20,816 nucleotides of DNA, taken from positions 1 to 20,816 of IMG/VR virus record IMGVR_UViG_2565956607_000008; one strand, written 5' to 3'. The first letter of the stretch is position 1. Every line of letters begins with the position of its first letter. The stretch comes from a virus. Lineage: Duplodnaviria; Heunggongvirae; Uroviricota; Caudoviricetes. The translations under genes were made by a program, and so were the position numbers. The notes below the pieces were generated by a model, which saw nothing but the letters and a program-made list of their open reading frames with translations, ran no database searches and had not been told where the DNA came from. Of this stretch, positions 1,248-20,727 are shown in pieces.

Positions 1248-2003
1248 TTATTTTGGACGCTTTTTGGTTGCTTTTTTCTTAAATTTGGGGGCGTACTTAT
1301 CCAAAGCGTTCGTTAGCAATCTCCGAAATGTATCTGGGTGGGTATCGCTGTCTTCATCGTTCCCGAATATTATGTTGTTTTCTATTACTTGGGCACTAAC
1401 CCTATTGATACTAAGGTTTCCTCCACTATGGAAATCTTTGCTTGATTCAAATAAGGCAATCGCCATTCCGGCGATCATCTTTAAAGCCGTATCTTTTCCT
1501 CTCCAGTTTTGTTCTCTTTCTACTTTTTTTGACAGTGCTCCAATTTCTGGTTCGTTATCTGGAACATTCATATCCAGTTCTGGGAAGAAGTTCACAACCT
1601 CGGAGCGCTTGAAATAAAACGAATCGTAAGACCCATACCAATCATCCTCATCATCGTGATATAAAAAGTCTTCCCCTTTCCTAACGTTGAAAGTCCCTTC
1701 TTCCCCCGGTATCGGGCTCTCCCTGTATTCATGCCCCATAGCCAGAAGACCTAAAAACTCCACACACTGCTTTTCAAAGTCGTCATTAGTTGTAAAACCT
1801 GATACCCAATCGAACTGATAAAAGCCCAGCCCCCCTAAAGTATCTGGTTTAGCTTTGCTCAATCTGTAGTTACTTAAGATAGCGGCAGCGATCATTCTTT
1901 CATTTTCATTGTTTAGTCTTGCCAGTTCGCTGATCAGATTACCAAACCAGATTTTATCTTCTGACTCGTTATAAAACGCATCTAGTCCTGTCATCTTAGT
2001 CAC
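1248..2003 (-). CDS. Hypothetical cargo protein of unknown function (251 aa), translationally coupled to the integrase
   Basis: Start overlaps the integrase stop by 8 nt (1996..2003); acidic central region; no motif recognised. The antisense ORF 1156..1617 is judged spurious. Confidence 0.55.
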   Translation of the reverse strand: MTKMTGLDAFYNESEDKIWFGNLISELARLNNENERMIAAAILSNYRLSKAKPDTLGGLGFYQFDWVSGFTTNDDFEKQCVEFLGLLAMGHEYRESPIPGEEGTFNVRKGEDFLYHDDEDDWYGSYDSFYFKRSEVVNFFPELDMNVPDNEPEIGALSKKVEREQNWRGKDTALKMIAGMAIALFESSKDFHSGGNLSINRVSAQVIENNIIFGNDEDSDTHPDTFRRLLTNALDKYAPKFKKKATKKRPK

Positions 2004-3282
2004 GGCGTGTTCTCCTTCCGAACTCGTAAGGGCTTATATGTATTTCTCGATTGGCGTCCAGATAATCTGCCCACCATTGAAGCATTAGTTTGCGCTCTTC
2101 TAAGTAATCAGCCTTGTGCTTGTAGGCTCTTTTAACGTCTTTATATTCTTTGTGGCTCATCTGGCGCTCTACTGCGTCCTCCTGCCACAAACCGGACTCC
2201 ATCAGGGAACTACAGGCTGTGGCACGGAATCCATGTCCAGTTACGTCCTCTTGCGTGTTATAGCCCATTAAGCGTAATGCCTTGTTTACCGTGTTTTCAC
2301 TCATCACGCCTTTGGTGTTTCTTTCATTCGGAAACACAACATCGTAGCTTCCGCTTAGTTCTCTCAACTGCTTTACAATAGAAACAGCCTGACGGCTAAG
2401 AAGCACGATATGTTCGTCTTTTCCCGTTTTTGTGCCACGGGTGGAAAACCTCACACCATCGATAGGCTCTCTTTTTTTAGGGATAATCCACTCAGCCCGA
2501 TCAAGGTCAAACTCTTTCCAACGGGCAAACCTTAACTCGCTTGAACGAACAAATGTCAACATGGTTAGCTCAATGGCAAGGCGGGTAAGAGGATTACCTT
2601 TAAAGCTGCCCAATCGAGTGAAAAAGTCTGGTAAATCTCTGGGATGTAGTGCGGCATGATGCTTAGTTTCATATTGCATTAACCGGACATCGAGATCATT
2701 CGTGATGATTTCTGTCTTAATGCCGCTCAGACGGGCGCTATGTATGATGTCCTTAACTCGTTGTTTAAGTCGGTTGGCTGTATCGTGTTTCCCGGCGTCA
2801 TCTACCTTCTTAAACAAAGGTAAAATTGTCATCGCCTCCAGTTTGCGAATATCCGAAGTGCCAATGTGAGGGAAAATATACATTTCAAGGCTTCTAAGTA
2901 CGCGTTTTCGTTGGTCTTCGTTCCACATCTGGTGGCTTTCAACCCATTGACGTCCTATTGTCTCAAAAGTGAATGCGCCTTTTTCTTCTGCTTTTGCTGC
3001 TCTTTGCTCTGCTTTGGGATCTATCCCCTTGACTAACAACTTTTTGGCGTTGTCTCGTTTTTCTCTGGCGTCTTGTAAGCTAATGGTTGGATATACACCA
3101 AAAGCAAGTCTGTCTTCTTTCTTATCTGATGGGCGGCGATACTTCATTCGCCAATACTTCGACCCGGTCTGGGATACTTCAAGATAAAGACCACCACCAT
3201 CAGACAATTTATAAGTTTTGTCTCGTGGCTTAGCTGCTTTGCACTGACGGTCTGTTAATTTGTTGAGGGTATTTCTGGACAT
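1996..3282 (-). CDS. int: Tyrosine site-specific integrase, P4/CP4-57 type (428 aa)
   Basis: N-terminal DUF4102-like arm-binding pattern (LTDRQCKAAKP...DGGGLYLEV...YWRMKYR), C-terminal catalytic region with HGFRAT and later Y; lies 165 bp from the 3' end of the tRNA on the same strand. Confidence 0.9.
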   Translation of the reverse strand: MSRNTLNKLTDRQCKAAKPRDKTYKLSDGGGLYLEVSQTGSKYWRMKYRRPSDKKEDRLAFGVYPTISLQDAREKRDNAKKLLVKGIDPKAEQRAAKAEEKGAFTFETIGRQWVESHQMWNEDQRKRVLRSLEMYIFPHIGTSDIRKLEAMTILPLFKKVDDAGKHDTANRLKQRVKDIIHSARLSGIKTEIITNDLDVRLMQYETKHHAALHPRDLPDFFTRLGSFKGNPLTRLAIELTMLTFVRSSELRFARWKEFDLDRAEWIIPKKREPIDGVRFSTRGTKTGKDEHIVLLSRQAVSIVKQLRELSGSYDVVFPNERNTKGVMSENTVNKALRLMGYNTQEDVTGHGFRATACSSLMESGLWQEDAVERQMSHKEYKDVKRAYKHKADYLEERKLMLQWWADYLDANREIHISPYEFGRRTRRD

Positions 3283-3446: not shown

Positions 3447-3521
3447 TGGTGTCCCCTGCAGGAATCGAACCTGCAATTAGCCCTTAGGAGGGGCTCGTTA
3501 TATCCATTTAACTAAGGGGAC
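3447..3521 (-). tRNA. argW: tRNA-Arg (anticodon CCU)
   Basis: Reverse complement folds by hand into a 75-nt cloverleaf: 7-bp acceptor stem GTCCCCT/AGGGGAC, D-arm GTTA/TAAC, anticodon stem AGCCC/GGGCT with loop CTCCTAA (anticodon CCT), T-arm GCAGG-TTCGATT-CCTGC, discriminator A, CCA end. Confidence 0.9.
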
Positions 3522-3716
3522 ATAGAACTCACTGATTTTTAAGCGTTCAGCTTGTGTTGCATGTTATCCTATCATTCCCCGTACCATCAAGCATTTCATT
3601 CCTTTTATTTCCTTTCCGTTCGCATCAATTCGCTTAGAAAATCACTTCGTTCACTTGCCATTGCGTACACATTGAGTACAGAATGCAGAATTTCAGTGTG
3701 TACAGGATACAGAGCC

Positions 3717-4892
3717 GTGGCCCTTAGTGATACCAAACTCCGTAGCATCAATGCTAAGCCATACAGCGGCGCAGCTGAGGTCACAGATGGTGACGGGCTA
3801 AGTGTACGCATAACTCCCACAGGCACGATCACATTCCAGTTTCGTTATCGCTGGAACGGTAAGCCCGTTCGTCTCTCCATTGGCCGCTATCCCGCTATGT
3901 CTCTCAAGGAGGCGCGCGTAGTCGTCGGTGAGATGCGCGAATTGTACCTCAAGGGACTAAACCCGAAAAATTATTTTGCCAAAGAAGATGGCGAGTTGAC
4001 TCTCAAAGAGTGCCTGGATCAGTGGTGGGGTAAGTATGTTGAAACGCTGAAGCCGAACACTCAGACGCTGTACAAGTCCGTTGTGTACAACACGATGTAC
4101 ACAGAATTCCCGGACGCTCCGGTAGTTAACATTCCTATTTCTGCATGGGTGCGTTTCTTTGATAAGCAGGAAAAGAAGAACAGCAAAAAGGCCAGAGTGC
4201 TTCTTCTACAGCTACGTTCTGTAATGAACTGGTGTATCAGCCGCCAGTTGATCCCATCGTGCGAGGTCCTGAAGCTTAGCGTTAAGAGCATTGGGAAAAA
4301 ACCTGATGTGGGTAGCCGAGTTCTCACATATACCGAGTTGGCAAAAATCTGGCTGGCGCTGGAGAATAACAAGATCGTGACTTCCAACAAGGTGCTTCAT
4401 CAGCTGCTTTTGCTTTGGGGAGCCAGGCTATCAGAGCTGCGTCTGGCTACCGCCAGTGAATTTAACATGGATGATCTTATCTGGACGACGCCAGGAGAGC
4501 ATTCCAAGATGGGTAACGTTATCCGTCGCCCGGTGTTTGGCCAGGTGAAACCTTTTGTTGAAAGGCTCCTCAATGCTGGAAATGATGTTCTGTTTCCCGG
4601 CCAGGAACTGGACAAGCCAATAGATCGCTCATCAGCTAATCTCTATATGAAAAAGTTAAGGAATAAAATTGATATCCCAGAATGGCGAACACATGACTTC
4701 AGGCGCTCGCTGGTGACAAATTTATCAGGTGAAGGGGTTATGCCCCACGTCACCGAAAAGATGTTGGGGCATGAGTTGGGAGGAGTGATGGCGGTGTATA
4801 ACAAGCACGATTGGCTGGTAGAACAGAAAGAAGCATATGAGCTATATGCAGATAAAATTTTTTGGCATGTCAAGAAAATAAATGACCAATAA
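3717..4892 (+). CDS. int: Tyrosine integrase of the lambdoid prophage (about 391 aa; GTG start proposed)
   Basis: The ORF track gives 3552..4892, but the conserved integrase N-terminus (ALSDTKLRSINAKP...DGDGLSVRI...FQFRYRWNGK) begins at an in-frame GTG at 3717 preceded by AGGA; C-terminal catalytic region has HDFRRS. Start choice is uncertain. Confidence 0.8.
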   Translation: MALSDTKLRSINAKPYSGAAEVTDGDGLSVRITPTGTITFQFRYRWNGKPVRLSIGRYPAMSLKEARVVVGEMRELYLKGLNPKNYFAKEDGELTLKECLDQWWGKYVETLKPNTQTLYKSVVYNTMYTEFPDAPVVNIPISAWVRFFDKQEKKNSKKARVLLLQLRSVMNWCISRQLIPSCEVLKLSVKSIGKKPDVGSRVLTYTELAKIWLALENNKIVTSNKVLHQLLLLWGARLSELRLATASEFNMDDLIWTTPGEHSKMGNVIRRPVFGQVKPFVERLLNAGNDVLFPGQELDKPIDRSSANLYMKKLRNKIDIPEWRTHDFRRSLVTNLSGEGVMPHVTEKMLGHELGGVMAVYNKHDWLVEQKEAYELYADKIFWHVKKINDQ

Positions 4893-4928
4893 CTTTAGAC
4901 GTAAGTATTGAATTCTCTGGGGTATGAA

Positions 4929-6245
4929 ATGGAAATGATATTTAATGAAGATAAAGATATTGAAAATGCATTGCAGTGGCTATCTAAAACTCTACCAGAA
5001 CCTAATTCATTGTTTGATAGAATGTGTCTGGCACAAGAGAGTTATATTAAAGAATCGGCCTTGAAGGTTAATATTGGAAAGGAATCGAAAATAGAATGGC
5101 ATGGATGTGATGTTGTCGCAGGTTTTTTCTCTCAAGCTAAATCCTATCTTGATAATCGACGTTCTTATGATATTTCAGCTGCATCTAAAATACTTCCTTG
5201 GGTGAAACAACTTGGTGTTAATGTTGAATATCTTAACAATATTCCAGGTGCGGTAGAACGTGCTAAAAGGATGTTGGAAAGTTATACCGTTTATCCGGAT
5301 AATGCATTGTTTGAATTAATATTAGCAGGAAATTATGCGGCTAAAGGTTTCGATGTTGAGTTTATACCTGAGCAGAAAGGAATAGCTAAAACTCCTGAGT
5401 TTAAATGTAGCTTTGATGGTAAGGCTCTTTTTGTTGTTGAATGCAAAAGATTAAAAAAGGGGCAATACGCCCAACAAGAGGAGTCGGCTCATTCAACAAG
5501 AGCTTCTTTTATTGAATCTCGTGTACATCTGAAAAGAATGAGTGTCTGGATGGATGTCACATATAAATGTGAAGTAAATGAAACACCGGACGATTATCTT
5601 TTAAAACATTTATGTAATTATTATGGGAAAGAATATTCCTGGAGTGATGACTACGGTAGTGGTTTTATAAAGCCTGCAAATTTGCGTAGGGTGAATGATG
5701 ATATTAAATTGAACGGTTCTCTATCATTACACACCAAATTGGCAAGACTAATTAAAACATCTCCACTCGATGGTGAGTTTTACAATGTTTATGCGTTTGG
5801 TCGACCAGATGAACGAGATCCACGTTTTTTCTCTAAAATTAATTATGCAACATTACTGACATGGCGAAATGTAAGCGAGGTGTCATTAGAAAACAGGTCC
5901 AGGCATATCACTAAACATTTAAAAGAAATTGAAGATCAAATATCAAATAATGGACTTGGTGTAGGGCATTTAGTTATTGATGCTGACGTACAAAAAGATG
6001 TCGCTGATAAACGGAGGGAAAAAAATATTGAGGCTGCACTTTCTTTCCGGATAAAGTCCAAGCTTGTTCGGTTAAATATTCATTATCTTGTTCCTCGTGT
6101 TGATGAAGATAATTCGTGGCTGGTGGACGAAACTCTTGAATTTTTCAGCGGTGACGAGTTGATTAGTCATTTGTTTCCTGAGGTGAAATTATTTTCAGGG
6201 ATGGAACTTTTTGAAAATGATTTGCCTGCATGGCATCAGAAATGA
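4929..6245 (+). CDS. AT-rich cargo protein with a PD-(D/E)xK nuclease-like motif (about 438 aa)
   Basis: ATG at 4929 preceded by GGGG (ORF track uses TTG at 4908). Residues GFDVEF...x...FVVECKRL give a D...ExK pattern. Immediately downstream of the integrase and followed by an intrinsic terminator. Confidence 0.6.
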   Translation: MEMIFNEDKDIENALQWLSKTLPEPNSLFDRMCLAQESYIKESALKVNIGKESKIEWHGCDVVAGFFSQAKSYLDNRRSYDISAASKILPWVKQLGVNVEYLNNIPGAVERAKRMLESYTVYPDNALFELILAGNYAAKGFDVEFIPEQKGIAKTPEFKCSFDGKALFVVECKRLKKGQYAQQEESAHSTRASFIESRVHLKRMSVWMDVTYKCEVNETPDDYLLKHLCNYYGKEYSWSDDYGSGFIKPANLRRVNDDIKLNGSLSLHTKLARLIKTSPLDGEFYNVYAFGRPDERDPRFFSKINYATLLTWRNVSEVSLENRSRHITKHLKEIEDQISNNGLGVGHLVIDADVQKDVADKRREKNIEAALSFRIKSKLVRLNIHYLVPRVDEDNSWLVDETLEFFSGDELISHLFPEVKLFSGMELFENDLPAWHQK

Positions 6246-6280: not shown

Positions 6281-6469
6281 CTAACTATGGCTACCACTAA
6301 TCCCACCATTTTCAATCCATTGAAACACAGCTTTTCTGCTATATCGCGTAGGATAAGTGAGAACTGGATTTGGGAAATTATGATCTTTACGTAAACGCCA
6401 TACTGCTGTTTTTTTCTTGCCCAGTAATTCGAATACTTCTTTCTCTTCCATAAAATCTGTAGAAGTCAT
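6281..6469 (-). CDS. xis: Excisionase-like HTH protein (about 62 aa)
   Basis: Internal ATG at 6467..6469 with GAGGTG ribosome-binding site; translation MTSTDFMEEKEVFELLGKKKTAVWRLRKDHNFPNPV... is an AlpA/Xis-type HTH; located beside int. ORF-track start at 6544 would overlap the next gene. Confidence 0.6.
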   Translation of the reverse strand: MTSTDFMEEKEVFELLGKKKTAVWRLRKDHNFPNPVLTYPTRYSRKAVFQWIENGGISGSHS

Positions 6470-6476
6470 AAGCACC

Positions 6477-6998
6477 TCATTCAAAATTACCGTTAAAAAT
6501 ACACGTTCCACACCCACCGCGAGCCCCTTCAGTACAAACATCACAGCGATCTACTTTTTTACGAGGTCGTTCTTTGATGTGCAGCCTTGGTTCCCCGTCT
6601 TTTGGTTCCGGCCATGAGCGCTGCTTGTTCACCGCCAGCTTTTCGATCATCGCCTGGGTAATCTGCTCATCTGCAATACCGGAACGGTGCTGAGCGTCCC
6701 ACAACAGGAACTGCATATCCGCCCACTCTGAAAGGTCGTCTGGTGCCGCTGCGGCCTCCAGCGCTTCTTTGCTGAGGTGCTTCAGCGGGCCAACCGGGCC
6801 GACATTGCCGAAAGTTGCCTGTGACCACTCGGCGTGCTCGTTGCGTACCTGTTCTCTGTCCATTGCGTCCAGTGCTATGCGGGCCAGCGCTTCAGCTTCT
6901 TCTGCTGGCAGCATTACGTTGCTTCCAGCTCCATAGGTTCCACGCCATGATTTAATTTTTTCCAGGCGCTCTCTCGCCAGTTTGGTTATATCAGTCAT
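6477..6998 (-). CDS. MazG-like nucleotide pyrophosphohydrolase domain protein (DUF550-like) with C-terminal Cys cluster (about 173 aa)
   Basis: Start ATG 6996..6998 overlaps the upstream stop (ATGACTGA); EWADMQFLLWDA resembles the MazG-type E-x-x-D helix; C-terminal CDVC...CGTC. The longer ORF-track N-terminus overlaps a convincing neighbouring gene. Confidence 0.55.
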   Translation of the reverse strand: MTDITKLARERLEKIKSWRGTYGAGSNVMLPAEEAEALARIALDAMDREQVRNEHAEWSQATFGNVGPVGPLKHLSKEALEAAAAPDDLSEWADMQFLLWDAQHRSGIADEQITQAMIEKLAVNKQRSWPEPKDGEPRLHIKERPRKKVDRCDVCTEGARGGCGTCIFNGNFE

Positions 6999-7191
6999 CG
7001 GAGTTATCCTCGCAGCAGTAGTGAGCGCCGTCCGGGTCAGTACTTTTGAAACCGCAGATATCACACTCAATTTCGTCATGGGCTTCTTCATCGCATTCGT
7101 GACTTTCCGGATCGTCGGCTTTGTAATAACCGCCGCACAAATTGCAGCGGACTTCTGCCACATCGTCATAGTTAGTAGTCCCGGTTATCAT
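6991..7191 (-). CDS. Small highly acidic cysteine-rich protein (66 aa), zinc-ribbon-like
   Basis: Translation rich in D/E with CxxC...C...CxxC...CC; ATGA overlap with the upstream gene at 7188..7191. Confidence 0.55.
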   Translation of the reverse strand: MITGTTNYDDVAEVRCNLCGGYYKADDPESHECDEEAHDEIECDICGFKSTDPDGAHYCCEDNSDD

Positions 7192-7427
7192 TTGTCAGCC
7201 CCCTCATGTAGCTGCTCTGCGATGCACGAAAAAAAAGACTCCCGCGTATGACTTTTAAGAGCTGATGCAAACGCCGCGTTAAGAACGGCAGCATCACAGC
7301 CGTCATCGATATAGAGTGCGATTTTTTTCTCCAGGCGCGCTTTGGCTTCCTGCAGCTGCATACCCCGGCAGGCGCGCGGGATATATTCCGCAATCTGTGA
7401 AATAGCCTTTTCGTTCTGTTTAAACAT
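7188..7427 (-). CDS. Hypothetical early-operon protein (79 aa)
   Basis: ATG 7425..7427 with GAGGTGA ribosome-binding site; overlaps neighbouring genes at both ends. Confidence 0.5.
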   Translation of the reverse strand: MFKQNEKAISQIAEYIPRACRGMQLQEAKARLEKKIALYIDDGCDAAVLNAAFASALKSHTRESFFSCIAEQLHEGADK

Positions 7428-7623
7428 GCTTCACCTCGATAGGCTTGATGGTGTCGAGCAGCAGTCGGCGGCGCGTATTTTCTGCAAAGTGACGGCGCCC
7501 GGTTTCTTTGTGGTAAAACTCGTTTTTGCCGACGACCCACATCCGCTCTGTCTGGTGCAGTTTTTTTACCTTCGGACCGTCTTTGGTGATAACGGTGCCG
7601 GTATGGGTTTTTACGATTGTCAT
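7420..7623 (-). CDS. Hypothetical early-operon protein (about 67 aa)
   Basis: Internal ATG 7621..7623 preceded by GGGGAGG; ATGA overlap with the stop of the ParB-like gene. Confidence 0.5.
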   Translation of the reverse strand: MTIVKTHTGTVITKDGPKVKKLHQTERMWVVGKNEFYHKETGRRHFAENTRRRLLLDTIKPIEVKHV

Positions 7624-8405
7624 ACAGCCTCCCCAAGCACCCAACGGAGTGCGCTCGCATACTCACCCTCGGCTGATTCCAGGGCTTTTGTGATTTCTTT
7701 GCGGGTTTTCAGGCGCGGCTTTGCCTCGCCGAGGATCTGACGCTGACGCCGGGCTTTTTCATGGCCGGTTGTGCCAGCAGTTGCCGCTTCGATTTCAGAT
7801 ACCTTCTCCCGCTGCTCTTCAGGTTTAAGCGATGCCAGCTGACGCGCCTGGGTAACAGTGACCGTTCCGGACTCCACTGCATCGCGAACAGCCTGGGTGG
7901 CATCCAGCAGTGACAGCGTTGCGCGTACGGTCTGGACACTCACGCCAAACATCAGCGCTAAATCGTCCTCGTCGTGCCCGCGCTCCAGCGCATCAGCCAT
8001 TTTCTTTGCTCGGCCCAGTGGCGTATCTGCTTGGCGGATTTCGTTAGCACTTACCATCGCCTGCGCCATGCGAACGGCGGAGCCACGTTTAGCGACTGCC
8101 GGAACCAGTAACGGTTCTTTACCCTCTTTCAACAGTCGCTTGTTGGCTTCCAGTGTATGGCGCACACGCTGGCGACCATCGACTACACAAGACAGCCCTG
8201 TTTCCGGGTCTTTCCAGACGATAATCGGCTCAAGAACGCCCTGATCCATGATGTTCAGCACCATTGCCTCGCTGATAGGCAGGTGGATACGCTCATCGTA
8301 AAGCGGGTGCGTTTTGTCCGTAACCAAGTGCAGGTTTTCAGGTTCGAACGTTAAAACATTCGTTTTGCCGCTGGCGCCGTATACCACCTTTGAGTCTTTA
8401 GCCAT
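7620..8405 (-). CDS. ParB-like nuclease domain protein (261 aa)
   Basis: VVDGRQRVRHTLEA resembles the ParB/sulfiredoxin-fold arginine motif; common in lambdoid early regions. Confidence 0.65.
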   Translation of the reverse strand: MAKDSKVVYGASGKTNVLTFEPENLHLVTDKTHPLYDERIHLPISEAMVLNIMDQGVLEPIIVWKDPETGLSCVVDGRQRVRHTLEANKRLLKEGKEPLLVPAVAKRGSAVRMAQAMVSANEIRQADTPLGRAKKMADALERGHDEDDLALMFGVSVQTVRATLSLLDATQAVRDAVESGTVTVTQARQLASLKPEEQREKVSEIEAATAGTTGHEKARRQRQILGEAKPRLKTRKEITKALESAEGEYASALRWVLGEAV

Positions 8406-9007: not shown

Positions 9008-9067
9008 TAAATCTAAAATAATTTAGTTTTTTGGTCAAGGTGAATAAACTAAATATTCTTAGTTTTC
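9008..9067. promoter_or_regulatory. Putative left operator/promoter region (OL/pL)
   Basis: Two 14-bp near-palindromes CTAAAATAATTTAG (9013..9026) and CTAAATATTCTTAG (9049..9062) sharing half-sites with the OR repeats; a leftward TTGACC / TAGATT-like promoter overlaps them. Confidence 0.45.
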
Positions 9068-9092: not shown

Positions 9093-9737
9093 TTAGCGGC
9101 GCATCTGGCGGCGGTGTTCGACAACGACACCGATGATGGAAATTTTTTCAACAGCAGAGTTTAAAGCAGCAAAATCAGGGTTTAACGGGACCAATTCGAA
9201 AACCTCTTCACCATTTTCGTTGACACCCCTTGCACGGTATTTTTTAAAAGTGGCGTATTCACTACCGTTTTTGGCTACAACATAGTCCCCAGGACCTGGA
9301 CACAAGTCAGGATCCACAATGATAGTGTCTCCCTCTTTGAACTCTGGCTCCATAGATTTTCCACGTACCTTAAGAGCGAAGGTACCAAACGAATGAGCGC
9401 CGTTTGTTAAAATGTAATCCACGGCACCCTCTAAATTACGAGCATCACTTTCAGATGTCCAAGTTCCTGCTTGAACCCAACTTATGATAGGGATCTGCAT
9501 AGCGCCTAAGTTGCCAGGCGCTACATTGGAGAGTTCCTCTTTACCGGTGAGGAGAAAGTCCTCAGAAACACCAAAATACCGAGCTAATTTTGTCAGCGAG
9601 ACTCCTCCGGGTATGTTTTGGTCTTTCTCCCAGTATCCAATGGTGACATCTGTCACTCCAACAACTTTACCCAGTTGCTTCTGGGTAAGCTTACGATCCT
9701 TTCTTAATGATTTTAAACGACTTCCAAATGTGCTCAC
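9093..9737 (-). CDS. cI: CI-like prophage repressor (HTH_XRE N-terminus, S24 LexA-like peptidase C-terminus; 214 aa)
   Basis: N-terminal MSTFGSRLKSLRKDRKLTQKQLGKVVGV... HTH; C-terminal ...KVRGKSMEPEFKEGDTIIVDPD... Ser-Lys dyad region typical of autocleaving repressors; GTG start; divergent from cro. Confidence 0.85.
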   Translation of the reverse strand: MSTFGSRLKSLRKDRKLTQKQLGKVVGVTDVTIGYWEKDQNIPGGVSLTKLARYFGVSEDFLLTGKEELSNVAPGNLGAMQIPIISWVQAGTWTSESDARNLEGAVDYILTNGAHSFGTFALKVRGKSMEPEFKEGDTIIVDPDLCPGPGDYVVAKNGSEYATFKKYRARGVNENGEEVFELVPLNPDFAALNSAVEKISIIGVVVEHRRQMRR

Positions 9738-9760: not shown

Positions 9761-9824
9761 CTAAATTATCTTAGCTTTAATTGACCTAAATTTGCTTTGG
9801 TCTTAATATCTAAATAAATTTAGG
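9761..9824. promoter_or_regulatory. Putative right operator region (OR) with three repressor-binding palindromes
   Basis: CTAAATTATCTTAG (9761..9774), CTAAATTTGCTTTGG (9786..9800), CTAAATAAATTTAG (9810..9823), spaced about 24 bp apart between the divergent cI and cro starts. Confidence 0.5.
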
Positions 9825-14225: not shown

Positions 14226-14570
14226 ATGCGTGATATGTATGAAATTTTAGACCGCTGGGGAGCATGGGCTGCAGCTGATAGTAGTGGTGTTGATTGGAAA
14301 CCCATTGCCGCAGGTTTTAAAGGTTTGTTACCTCATGGAAAGAAAACACGTCATCAATGCGATGATGATGAAGGAATCATGATTGACGGCTGTGTAGCGC
14401 GATTGCGGAAGTATAAGCCAGAAGAGTATGAGTTAATAATTGCTCATTTTGTTATTGGTTTCTCATTAAGAAGCATCGCGAAGAAACGGAAGTGTTCTGA
14501 TGGGACCATCAGGAAGGAATTGCAGACTGCAATGGGGTTTGTAGATGGTTGTTTAGAAATGGTTAACTGA
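14226..14570 (+). CDS. Late-gene antitermination protein Q (QuuD-like family; 114 aa)
   Basis: MRD...LDRWGAWAA...DWKPIAAGFKGL...RHQCDDDEG...DGCVARL...CSDGTIRKELQTAMGFVDGCL closely follows the pattern I recall for DLP12-type Q antiterminators. Confidence 0.8.
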   Translation: MRDMYEILDRWGAWAAADSSGVDWKPIAAGFKGLLPHGKKTRHQCDDDEGIMIDGCVARLRKYKPEEYELIIAHFVIGFSLRSIAKKRKCSDGTIRKELQTAMGFVDGCLEMVN

Positions 14571-14606: not shown

Positions 14607-15068
14607 TTAAAAGCTTTTAAGATATTTGCTTTTGATTTTTTCACTAACACTTTGTAATTCATGCAGTGTTGTGCCAACTTTATCAGCTTCATATTTTGTG
14701 TCATTGGTACATGCTTGGCGCAACTCTGCTATGAAACCTGTATCTTTTGTGCGGCTTGCATCAAGGAGTTGAATGCGTTCACATATAAACTCAACATGCC
14801 GTACGGACGATGTAAATATGAAATAAGATACTCTTTTGTCTTTTTCTTTATTCTCAAGTAGTTCCAGCATTTCACTATAAATGAAATCTAACTTGTAAAA
14901 CAACTCGTCTATCAATCTGTTTATTTCAAGTTTTTTGAGATTGTTTGCATTATTTTTCCGCGCCAAGTAGGCAGTAACTATCCATCCAATGATAGTTAAA
15001 CATATGCCCACAATAGCAATTATGGTAGCTGGTAGTGCCCATAAATTTGGAGTAACGGCTTGTTCCAT
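14607..15068 (-). CDS. Cassette gene C: single-pass membrane protein with helical cytoplasmic domain (153 aa)
   Basis: N-terminal hydrophobic helix (LWALPATIIAIVGICLTIIGWIVTAYLA) then charged helical region; 1-nt TAATG overlap with gene B; GAGGGATG ribosome-binding site; AT-rich. Confidence 0.7.
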   Translation of the reverse strand: MEQAVTPNLWALPATIIAIVGICLTIIGWIVTAYLARKNNANNLKKLEINRLIDELFYKLDFIYSEMLELLENKEKDKRVSYFIFTSSVRHVEFICERIQLLDASRTKDTGFIAELRQACTNDTKYEADKVGTTLHELQSVSEKIKSKYLKSF

Positions 15069-15385
15069 TATTTGGCATCCCTCAGAGCATCATTGATATA
15101 AGTAACAACCTCGGCAACTAATGCCGGATCCTTACTTTTAAGATTTTTCTTTAGGTTGTTAATCTTATCTTTGCTGATTCCCTTTCGCACCAGTCCACCA
15201 AAGGCCTCCTCCAAAAATGAGGATCCATACCCGAAAACCCCGTCAAAGTCAACGCAAATTTCATCATTTTCCAGTATTGCAGGAACTAAATAAAATTCGC
15301 GGAATTTTTCGCCACTATTCTCTCCAAGCGACTCGTAGCGAGGGCCAGGATATCTGGAGAATTCCTTGATATATAAAGTTTTCAT
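15068..15385 (-). CDS. Cassette gene B: STAS-like (DUF4325-like) small protein (105 aa)
   Basis: VDFDGVFGYGSSFLEEAFGGL parallels the anti-sigma-factor-antagonist motif around the phosphorylatable serine; strong AAGGAGAAG ribosome-binding site; ATGA overlap with gene A. Confidence 0.7.
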   Translation of the reverse strand: MKTLYIKEFSRYPGPRYESLGENSGEKFREFYLVPAILENDEICVDFDGVFGYGSSFLEEAFGGLVRKGISKDKINNLKKNLKSKDPALVAEVVTYINDALRDAK

Positions 15386-16482
15386 GCCGCTTCTCCTTCA
15401 GTTGGTAGTGGCACACTCCACTCAACAATTGTACCATTGATGGATTTATGAGCATCCCACATCAATTCGGGCCTTGCTTTCTTCCTTTTAGTATATCTGT
15501 AGTTCCCCTTGTTTGATATGATTCTGAGTTGGGCATGTGTAAAATTATCTATAATTGATTGTAAATCCGTGCCGCCTTTCCCTCTGTAACCAAGTTTTGT
15601 TCTTGTGCGTTTAACCTGTAATGATGCTTTTATATGCTCTGAATCTAATTCAATAGGCTTGCCTATAATTTCAATAAGTTTTGATAAAACTCTTTCTCCT
15701 TGAGTTAATTTCAAAGTTTTGGGAATTCCAACTCCTAAATCGCATATGGATAAAATCAATTTATTATTCATTATTGCTGCAAAACACCACCATTTATTTT
15801 TAATGTTGTTCTTTTGCTTGTCGTATAGATCATCTCTATATGCGTGCTCTACCGAGTTGGACATCGCCTCAATTAGAGGTCTGTATAAATTAGTGTAATC
15901 CGTTCCCATTTTCTCAGTTACTGCTTCTAATAGTTTCCCAGCAATTGTAGAATCAACCAGTTCACCTCTAATAACCTCCCAGCACTTAACAGATGGGTTC
16001 TCTTTCATCTCTCGACCTTTTACCCCAAATGCAGAATATATACCAATACGGTTAAGTACGCTATCAACTACATGATGTTCGCCTTTCTGTGTAGTTTTGA
16101 ATGGAGGGCGAGTTACAGTGTATCTTATATCTGGATAGTTACTTTTTAAACTCTCCAGTTTTGCTAGTAAATATAATCCTGCAGCGGCCGATATGTAAAT
16201 CGTATTTCTGAAGCAAACATATATTTTTTGAGTTTTAAACTGCTCTTGCTTGGCTTTTTTTTCAATATTTTCAATAAAACTTATTACGTTGTCATGGTAA
16301 TTAGAGTTATAGATATCAAGAATAGTAGGTGCAACTATTTTTTCAGAATTTGATTTTCGTATGTTACCATTACGTTTGTATCTTTTGTGTTCGGTTGACT
16401 TTTTGCTTGCGTTTGCACGGAGAAACCTTTTTCTCCTTATTCTTTTTAACACTGAAGTATAGAGCTGTTCTATTTTTTTCAT
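15382..16482 (-). CDS. Cassette gene A: protein with basic N-terminal region and C-terminal GHKL/HATPase-like ATP-binding domain (366 aa)
   Basis: AAGGAG ribosome-binding site 8 nt upstream; N-box-like EAMSNSVEHAY (E205..N209..H213), G1-like CDLGVGI (D248xGxG), G2-like GYRGKGGTDL (about 299..308); AT-rich. Confidence 0.7.
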   Translation of the reverse strand: MKKIEQLYTSVLKRIRRKRFLRANASKKSTEHKRYKRNGNIRKSNSEKIVAPTILDIYNSNYHDNVISFIENIEKKAKQEQFKTQKIYVCFRNTIYISAAAGLYLLAKLESLKSNYPDIRYTVTRPPFKTTQKGEHHVVDSVLNRIGIYSAFGVKGREMKENPSVKCWEVIRGELVDSTIAGKLLEAVTEKMGTDYTNLYRPLIEAMSNSVEHAYRDDLYDKQKNNIKNKWWCFAAIMNNKLILSICDLGVGIPKTLKLTQGERVLSKLIEIIGKPIELDSEHIKASLQVKRTRTKLGYRGKGGTDLQSIIDNFTHAQLRIISNKGNYRYTKRKKARPELMWDAHKSINGTIVEWSVPLPTEGEAA

Positions 16483-16707: not shown

Positions 16708-16737
16708 TTGACTAACACAAAGTTTACAAATTAGATT
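16708..16737 (+). promoter_or_regulatory. Putative late promoter (pR'-like)
   Basis: TTGACT (16708..16713), 17-18 bp spacer, TTAGAT/TAGATT (16731..16737); upstream of a non-coding leader ending in terminators before the lysis genes. Sequence-only prediction. Confidence 0.3.
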
Positions 16738-17010
16738 ATCGACATGGTGAATCCCCCTATGCGGTGGGGCGACCAGTCACTTACAGTGATCTGTAAATGC
16801 AGCGCGGGCCATGTCGACTGGGACATGCTCACCGGGAGGCACCCGGCACCATACAATGCTACTAAGCTATTTGGTAGTGGGGTTGCCGTTTCGGCTTCTC
16901 CAGCTATGTTTAAAAGGTAGTAACGGAAAACGAGCGCTCTCCTGGTAAATCGGTAGCTCGGACTATTAGGTGCGCCTCGTTCCGTTGCAGAATCAGTATT
17001 GCCTACCTTC

Positions 17011-19821: not shown

Positions 19822-20727
19822 CTATATTTCCAGACACCTGTCATCACTTAACCCATTACTGGCCCGCTGCCGTAGATATTCCCGTGGCGAGCGATAACCC
19901 AGTGCACTATGCGGATGCCATTCGTTATAATGCTCGAACGCCTCTGCAAGGTTCTTTGCTGCCGTTAACCCGTCTGGTTTGGGCATGATACTGATGTAAT
20001 CACGCTTTATCGTTTTCACGAAGCTCTCTGCTATGCCGTTACTCTCCGGACTCCGCACCGCCGTGTTCTTCGGTTCAAGTCCCAACATCCGGGCGAACTG
20101 GCGTGTTTCATTAGCCCGGTAGCATGAACCATTATCCGTCAGCCACTCCACTGGAGATGTCGGAAGCTCGCTGCCGAAGCGGCGTTCCACCGCTCCCAGC
20201 ATGACGTCCTGTACTGTTTCACTGTTGAAGCCGCCCGTAGTGACCGCCCAGTGCAGTGCCTCACGGTCACAGCAGTCCAGCGCGAACGTGACTCGCAGTC
20301 TCTCTCCGTTATCACAGCAGAACTCGAACCCGTCAGAGCACCATCGCTGATTGCTTTCTTTCACGGCCACTCTGCCTGTATGTGCCCGTTTCGATGGCGG
20401 TACAGCAGGTTTTCGCTCAAGCAACAGCGCATTCTGGCGCATGATCCGGTAAACACGTTTGGCATTGATCGCAGGCATACCATCAAGTTCTGCCTGTCTG
20501 CGAAGCAGCGCCCATACCCGACGATAACCATACGTGGGCAGCTCTCCGATAACATGGTGTATACGGAGAAGCACATCCGTATCATCAGTGTGACGACTGC
20601 GGCGGCCATCCATCCAGTCATCGGTTCGTCTGAGAATGACGTGCAACTGCGCACGCGACACCCGGAGACAACGGCTGACTAAGCTTACTCCCCATCCCCG
20701 GGCAATAAGGGCGCGTGCGCTATCCAC
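19822..20727 (-). CDS. insD: IS2 transposase OrfB (InsD; 301 aa)
   Basis: Translation [43 protein letters not shown]... with DDE-type integrase core matches IS2 InsD as I recall it. Confidence 0.95.

Follow-up and report, generated by a model that had tools for sequence, protein, structure and literature searches.

A stretch of 20,816 nt of DNA which carries a lambdoid prophage (IMG/VR virus record IMGVR_UViG_2565956607_000008, positions 1 to 20,816, called the window below) contains a gene of 66 codons on its minus strand, which codes for a small acidic protein. This is a genuine gene under purifying selection, and its product consists of two diverged copies of one Cys-Cys-His-Cys (CCHC) motif, which we call modules A and B. 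Module A relates the protein to Orf45 of phage P22, while module B is found as the C-terminal tail of many otherwise unrelated proteins. The gene is a new two-module member of the catalogued, uncharacterised Orf45 family, and on present evidence it is an ordinary hypothetical accessory gene. As for the role of the product, we tentatively prefer to see it as a zinc-stabilised acidic protein-binding module which may act as an adaptor, decoy or inhibitor, a reading to which we give somewhat less than an even chance.

A selected gene with two CCHC modules

The gene and its parts are the following:

6991..7191 (stop codon included), minus strand: acidic protein with two CCHC knuckles (open reading frame, 30 unique homologous genes, RefSeq p10A coding sequence)
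7081..7191, minus strand: module A, residues 1-37, MITGT.NYD...C16xxC19GGYYKADDPE.H31xC33 (homology to phrog_25957 and P22 orf45)
6994..7080, minus strand: module B, residues 38-66, EIEC43DIC46GFKSTDPDGAH57YC59CEDNSDD (portable C-terminal tail, homologous to A)
7093..7146, minus strand: putative zinc site 1, span of the ligand codons C16 (7146..7144), C19 (7137..7135), H31 (7101..7099) and C33 (7095..7093), from conservation in 29 homologues
7015..7065, minus strand: putative zinc site 2, span of the ligand codons C43 (7065..7063), C46 (7056..7054), H57 (7023..7021) and C59 (7017..7015), all four invariant

The reading frame runs from ATG to TGA, and its product is MITGTTNYDDVAEVRCNLCGGYYKADDPESHECDEEAHDEIECDICGFKSTDPDGAHYCCEDNSDD. 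The initial annotation described a small, extremely acidic, cysteine-rich protein, and the composition agrees: There are 12 Asp and 8 Glu (20 of the 66 residues, 30%), 3 Lys/Arg, 7 Cys and 3 His, with an isoelectric point of 4.05 and a net charge of about -17. Among the products of the gene string to which it belongs, this protein is a clear outlier, by far the most acidic and the richest in Cys. The cysteines are found as C16-x2-C19, C33, C43-x2-C46 and C59-C60, which is the CxxC...C...CxxC...CC order previously claimed.

Homologues of the protein form 57 clusters in a collection of 5.8 billion proteins and are found at 85 or more loci. The exact 66 amino acid sequence is present on 126 contigs, named "hypothetical protein" every time. 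In E. coli p10A there is a prophage with 99.9% identical DNA, where RefSeq annotates the same coding sequence of 201 nt, also as a hypothetical protein. Most of the variation among the homologous genes is at the third position of the codon. Over 30 unique DNA sequences of the full gene, the positional entropy is 0.21, 0.21 and 0.79 for codon positions 1, 2 and 3, respectively. The ratio of nonsynonymous to synonymous differences per site (pN/pS, Nei-Gojobori) is 0.22 in module A, compared with 0.17 in module B. These values of about 0.2 are those of a real, selected gene and, since pS is about 0.6, conservation is found at the level of the protein and not of the DNA.

Other candidates in the same region have been considered. 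A 230 amino acid reading frame (6477..7169, minus strand), which extends the frame of the downstream DUF550 gene through most of the 66-codon gene, is an artefact according to both the codon position statistics and RefSeq, and the DUF550 gene really starts at the ATG at 6998. On the opposite strand, a reading frame at 6982..7251 overlaps the gene, and RefSeq annotates no gene there. A hidden RNA element was also looked for, and the region of the gene has no Rfam match.

Modules A and B align with each other across CxxCG..K..DP..HxC (profile-profile match, hhalign probability 82%, E=1e-5), so the protein is made of tandem diverged copies of one CCHC motif. The spacing is CxxC-x11-HxC in the first copy and CxxC-x10-HxC in the second one. 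Seven residues (C16, C19, C33, C43, C46, H57 and C59) never change in the alignment of 29 full-length homologues, and H31 is kept in at least 90% of them. H38 varies, and so does C60, where some homologues have Y or S. Three acidic positions (D9, D26 and D44) are also invariant. From these conserved Cys and His residues, the most parsimonious inference is that each module probably binds one zinc. Two separate sites are more parsimonious because independent proteins carry each CxxC together with its own HxC. The arrangement had been described as similar to a zinc ribbon. The conserved residues do fit zinc binding, but they form two CCHC sets rather than one C4 ribbon, and no classical zinc ribbon family of Pfam matches the protein at E<=1.

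The structure prediction which had been suggested was run with AlphaFold2. Two runs, with 29 and then 54 aligned sequences, gave the same model, in which a beta-hairpin around each CxxC is followed by a short helical turn, with no helix of 4 or more residues. The hairpin units are thus modelled, at low confidence (predicted local distance difference test, pLDDT, 65; predicted template modelling score 0.32) and with no significant fold relative. A Foldseek search of the PDB with this pLDDT 65 model gave nothing below E=1.2, with tandem zinc fingers or UBZ domains as the top matches (template modelling score 0.33 or less). The only match in BFVD was a 37 amino acid protein of the same family. 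The model resembles the CCHC/C2HC beta-beta-alpha fingers (UBZ, FOG/NEMO-type) in the Cys-Cys-His-Cys order and in the CxxC hairpin followed by a short helical turn. On the other hand, the protein has no Pfam zinc finger match, its Foldseek matches do not reach significance and its H-x-C spacing is not canonical.

Portable modules, the Orf45 family and gene junctions

We have surveyed module B by searching 1.84 billion representative proteins with a profile, and obtained 101 matches. In most of them, the last residue of module B is also the last one of the protein, which has a length of 80-460 amino acids. It forms the extreme C-terminus in 70 or more otherwise unrelated clusters (50% identity), and it is among the most widely reused C-terminal modules of the ea and nin regions. 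When 70 tail-bearing representatives were compared with Pfam, DUF550 was found in 14, a zinc ribbon of the Lar_restr_allev type in 4 (two of them above the Pfam cutoff) and Ead/Ea22 in 3. Another 46 have no Pfam match, and the remainder are four single-member matches. The search detected no distant annotated relative, only proteins with A or B modules and a few repetitive Cys-rich proteins.

The tailed ea proteins (DUF550-B, Lar-like-B and Ead/Ea22-B) are annotated as hypothetical. Their last 27-30 residues are nearly identical, EIECDICG[FH].S.DP[DE]G.H.CCEDNS[DN][DE], and they share with the window gene an 8 nt overlap with the next gene. They differ in their large N-terminal domains (enzymes, zinc ribbons, coiled coils), while the tail in the window is joined to module A only.

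Both modules are also found on their own, module A in proteins of 37-39 amino acids and module B in proteins of 44-45 amino acids, although fusion tails of B are far more common. Other combinations exist. The protein encoded upstream of the window gene, which belongs to phrog_1344, is fused to module B in one case (P0110) and to module A in another (P0042). At eight loci (L005, at 2888..3219, L012, L053, L063, L065, L066, L070 and L076) the modules are in adjacent genes: A gene for a 38 amino acid module A is followed, with an overlap of 4 nt or 22 nt, by a gene for a protein of 66-77 amino acids in which a CPRC..CRNC zinc ribbon (CxxC..CxxC) precedes module B. All three parts, module A, the CPRC..CRNC ribbon and module B, are fused in a single protein of 94 amino acids (P0030).

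Module A corresponds to phrog_25957 (E=2.5e-17, residues 1-35 on profile positions 1-35 of 45). The P22 member of this family is Orf45 (gp31, YP_063723.1), and the window protein is 55% identical to it over 40 amino acids (tblastn, E=6e-10). P22 Orf45 and gp30 of epsilon34 share MITGT.NYD and CxxCGGY[YF]KAD.PE.HxC with residues 1-37. Moreover, P22 Orf45 is also encoded by a small ATGA-coupled reading frame in the early-left ea accessory region. There are differences: P22 Orf45 has one knuckle and a non-acidic tail rich in Gln and Pro, while the window protein has a second knuckle and is far more acidic. Members of the Orf45 family have the length of a single module (about 38-45 amino acids), so that the 66 amino acid protein is a two-module variant. 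The searchable literature since the genome papers lists the function of P22 Orf45 only as "unknown". The "orf45" of Gifsy-1 (IsrK paper) is apparently unrelated, a leader reading frame upstream of anrP; we have set it apart by its description and not by its sequence.

The family is carried by temperate lambdoid and P22-like phages and prophages, and its hosts are all Enterobacteriaceae (Klebsiella, Salmonella, Escherichia, Raoultella, Yokenella, Mangrovibacter, Leclercia, Kluyvera and Citrobacter). A scan of one genome per species detected only 6 loci, all of them in Enterobacteriaceae, so the family is a narrow one. The full 1147 nt segment which includes the window gene (6281..7427) is present in 2 of 5426 complete E. 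coli genomes. The position of the family gene varies, as it may be found in the ea region or in the nin region.

The gene is closely packed between its neighbours:

7188..7427, minus strand: upstream coupled neighbour, a 79 amino acid phrog_1344 protein (PHROG match)
7199..7205, minus strand: GAGGGGG, similar to a Shine-Dalgarno sequence, 7 nt 5' of the ATG of the 66-codon gene and inside the final codons of the upstream gene (read from the sequence)
6996..7011, minus strand: initiation region of the next gene in codons E61-D66, with Shine-Dalgarno sequence GAGGA at 7011..7007 and ATG at 6998..6996 (sequence)
6477..6998, minus strand: 173 amino acid DUF550/PF04447 dATP/dGTP pyrophosphohydrolase (Pfam E=1.2e-41; start matches RefSeq p10A)

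Upstream, the ATG of the gene overlaps the stop codon of the 79 amino acid reading frame (ATGA, 7191..7188). Downstream, its TGA overlaps the ATG of the DUF550 gene by 8 nt (ATGACTGA, 6998..6991). The translational coupling claimed by the initial annotation is thus borne out as geometry, with start/stop overlaps on both sides. The C-terminal endings of the upstream genes (...GADK or ...GAGK followed by the stop) recur at other loci. The 3' end of the 66-codon gene reads GAG GAT AAC TCC GAT GAC TGA, and codon E61 shows zero variation at all three positions in the 30 unique DNA versions. Because the Shine-Dalgarno sequence and the ATG of the next gene are embedded there, part of the conservation of ...CCEDNS[DN][DE] is dual coding for coupling.

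The DUF550 enzyme of the window has its own Cys-rich tail, CxxC-x7-CxxC (RCDVCTEGARGGCGTC, 6480..6548, minus strand). In many homologues, and thus in other phages, module B takes the place of this tail. A small zinc module of one kind or another seems to be the regular ending of the DUF550 enzymes in these phages.

Possible roles of the product

The protein is too small and too acidic for an enzyme or a DNA binder, and no enzyme or helix-turn-helix family of Pfam, PHROG or NCBIfam matches it. Pfam and NCBIfam gave nothing meaningful, with C1_2 as the best match (E=0.24). No family of the PADLOC defence models was detected at E<=0.01, and the matches among PDB sequences are chance coincidences of the Cys pattern (best E=0.055). 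We have also looked for homology to a characterised regulator with a role other than defence, and found none. In the searchable literature on orf45/eaF, on peptide motifs and on lambdoid anti-defence screens, we found no functional data for any member of the family.

In the reading that we prefer, the A and B knuckles would each bind one zinc within a strongly acidic sequence, and they would bind to one shared surface, probably a basic one, on some host or phage protein. Module B would have been attached by phage recombination to many different early-region proteins. As a tail, it could bring enzymes (the DUF550 nucleotide pyrophosphohydrolase, for example) to the common partner, and the free A+B protein might occupy the same site of this partner, whether as adaptor, decoy or inhibitor. 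The gene also has a second, mechanical role at its 3' end, which carries the ribosome-binding site and the start codon of the next gene.

Several points weigh against this reading. The AlphaFold2 models have low confidence and do not establish the fold or the zinc geometry. Known CCHC fingers have H-x3-5-C/H, a longer spacing than the H-x-C found here. Across loci, module B is followed by highly diverse genes, so that gene context points to no obligate partner, and we have rejected the DUF550 link as an obligate one. Neither a binding partner nor an experiment is found in the searchable literature for any member of the family. Finally, such a promiscuous tail could reflect stability, oligomerisation or turnover, and not docking onto a shared target.

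A bolder version can be proposed, which we consider rather unlikely. Modules A and B might be an undescribed portable zinc-knuckle "address tag" that steers varied early effectors to one common target in the host or the phage. The effectors so tagged would be the dNTP pyrophosphohydrolases, Lar-like ribbons and Ead/Ea22 proteins of lambdoid phages of Enterobacteriaceae. The free A+B protein would then be a tag-only blocker or regulator, and the target might be a host nuclease or defence protein. The lambdoid ea and nin regions are full of small genes without a known role, even in the model phage P22, and dozens of otherwise unrelated accessory proteins could be studied at once through one short motif, by tagging it, mutating it or using it in pull-downs. 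If it were true that the shared partner is a host defence or DNA metabolism protein, a sizeable block of phage "dark matter" would be explained.

The initial annotation suggested a possible anti-defence factor. This would be an acidic protein which, at an early stage of infection or induction, blocks a nuclease of restriction or defence by mimicking DNA or in another way. Our results neither support nor refute this idea, which we regard as unlikely. No anti-restriction, defence or regulator family matches the protein. The content of Asp/Glu and the net charge speak for it, as the charge density is within the range of DNA mimics such as Ocr. T7 Ocr and ArdA share this very high negative charge density, but the window protein has no sequence or fold similarity to them, nor to Ral/Lar or any other such family, and it has no relative in the PDB. 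In fact, Ocr and ArdA are zinc-free helical dimers expressed early, and known DNA mimics are mostly helical and zinc-free, while the window protein is built of Cys/His knuckles and its model shows only short hairpins. The early accessory location is in agreement with an anti-defence role, as is the position of P22 orf45 a few genes downstream of the anti-RecBCD genes abc1 and abc2. So is the patchy distribution, with the segment in so few E. coli genomes and the gene in either the ea or the nin region. The fusion of module B to ribbons of the Lar_restr_allev type (4 of 70 clusters) is the sole link with a defence flavour, and an indirect one. Like the window protein, Lar of the Rac prophage and Ral of lambda are small, contain Cys and are encoded in lambdoid accessory regions, and ribbons of the Lar family are found in one polypeptide with module B. 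Nevertheless, the window protein itself has no PF14354 match at E<=1, Lar/Ral proteins are not known to be strongly acidic, and the Lar association is weak, most members of that family being uncharacterised. A stand-alone DNA mimic would not predict module B as the tail of enzymes. The neighbouring gene offers a different explanation, which appears quite unlikely to us: The protein might be a dedicated partner or regulator of the adjacent DUF550 (MazZ-like) enzyme, with its knuckles acting in trans as the zinc tail which many DUF550 enzymes have in cis. DUF550 enzymes hydrolyse dGTP and dATP (PMC12884076). The two genes are translationally coupled, DUF550 is the commonest identifiable carrier of module B in cis (14 of 70 clusters and many IMG/VR loci), and the same 173 amino acid DUF550 gene is found immediately 3' of A+B at about a dozen loci. 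However, other, unrelated genes follow most A+B genes, and module B is also found on many proteins other than DUF550. Moreover, the DUF550 enzyme of the window already has a CxxC-x7-CxxC tail of its own, and in P22 the genes for Orf45 and for the DUF550-type EaA are not neighbours.

It is very improbable that the gene is a by-product of mosaic junctions, a conserved recombination linker and coupling cassette whose peptide has no function. Both ends of the gene do contain initiation signals of neighbouring genes, and 83 of 85 module B genes have an ATG which precedes their stop by 8 nt. Modules A and B are found at the N- and C-termini of many mosaic proteins, as would be expected of junction modules, and the early regions of P22-like phages are highly mosaic (PMC2629481). 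Against this explanation, synonymous sites are near saturation, while the amino acids and every Cys/His ligand are conserved. DNA which has diverged so much is a poor substrate for homologous recombination. Most improbable of all is a single C4 zinc ribbon which binds RNA polymerase or another transcription component, as TraR/DksA do. The two CxxC pairs, 23 residues apart, might form such a ribbon, and zinc fingers are among the weak neighbours given by Foldseek. RNA polymerase can be the target of small zinc proteins encoded in the accessory regions of lambdoid phages, as in the case of lambda Orf73/TraR. Nevertheless, no DksA/TraR or zinc ribbon family matches the protein at E<=1, no coiled coil is found and all fold matches are non-significant (E>=1.2). 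Each CxxC is also paired with its own HxC in independent proteins, which does not correspond to a single ribbon.

Prophage context

The gene is part of a lambdoid prophage integrated at tRNA-Arg(CCT) (3447..3521). The main features around it are the following:

3552..4892, plus strand: integrase
4908..6245, plus strand: 445 amino acid gene, no Pfam or PADLOC match
8755 down to 6281, minus strand: leftward string of overlapping genes
9038..9010, minus strand: sigma-70-like promoter at the place expected for pL
9093..9737, minus strand: CI-type repressor
9781..9809, plus strand: sigma-70-like promoter at the place expected for pR

The order of the leftward string, from 8755 to 6281, is phrog_15091, ParB-like, phrog_1226, phrog_1344, the 66-codon gene, DUF550 and an excisionase-like helix-turn-helix protein. 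No terminator-like site is found on the minus strand between 8755 and 6281. The plus strand contains genes for Cro, CII, an O-like replication protein, a Dam methylase, DUF968/HNH, Q and lysis. The pL-like promoter, the lack of terminators and the serial start/stop overlaps support the reading of this string as an early-left operon, in agreement with the initial annotation, and as far as the architecture goes this reading is sound. The 66-codon gene is probably expressed from this leftward early (pL-type) operon.

Some other features of the window should also be mentioned. The gene at 4908..6245 has about 35% guanine plus cytosine (GC), compared with 50-58% in the rest of the prophage. It is found between the integrase and the excisionase-like gene, a typical place for prophage cargo or a defence moron. 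Two tyrosine integrases (1996..3282, minus strand, and 3552..4892, plus strand) flank the tRNA-Arg(CCT), which suggests that two elements are integrated in tandem. In E. coli p10A, a gene for a major facilitator superfamily transporter is found about 440 bp to the left of this tRNA, and no integrase is annotated there. The ParB-like protein (HTH_ParB, phrog_1033; 7620..8405, minus strand) is part of an integrating lambdoid prophage, and it is conserved in the Klebsiella and E. coli relatives.

On the right side of the window, the minus strand contains three genes with low GC (33-38%) at 14607..16482. They separate the Q antiterminator (14226..14570) from the lysis genes, both of which are on the opposite strand. 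They code for proteins of 366, 105 (DUF4325, STAS-like) and 153 amino acids, have no PADLOC match and could be a moron or a defence cassette. Just 5' of the lysis region, the small RNA STnc100 is matched by Rfam at 16715..16907, plus strand (76 bits, with a gathering score of 47). An IS3-family transposase reading frame (rve/HTH_21; 19822..20727, minus strand) is inserted in the late region near the right end of the window.

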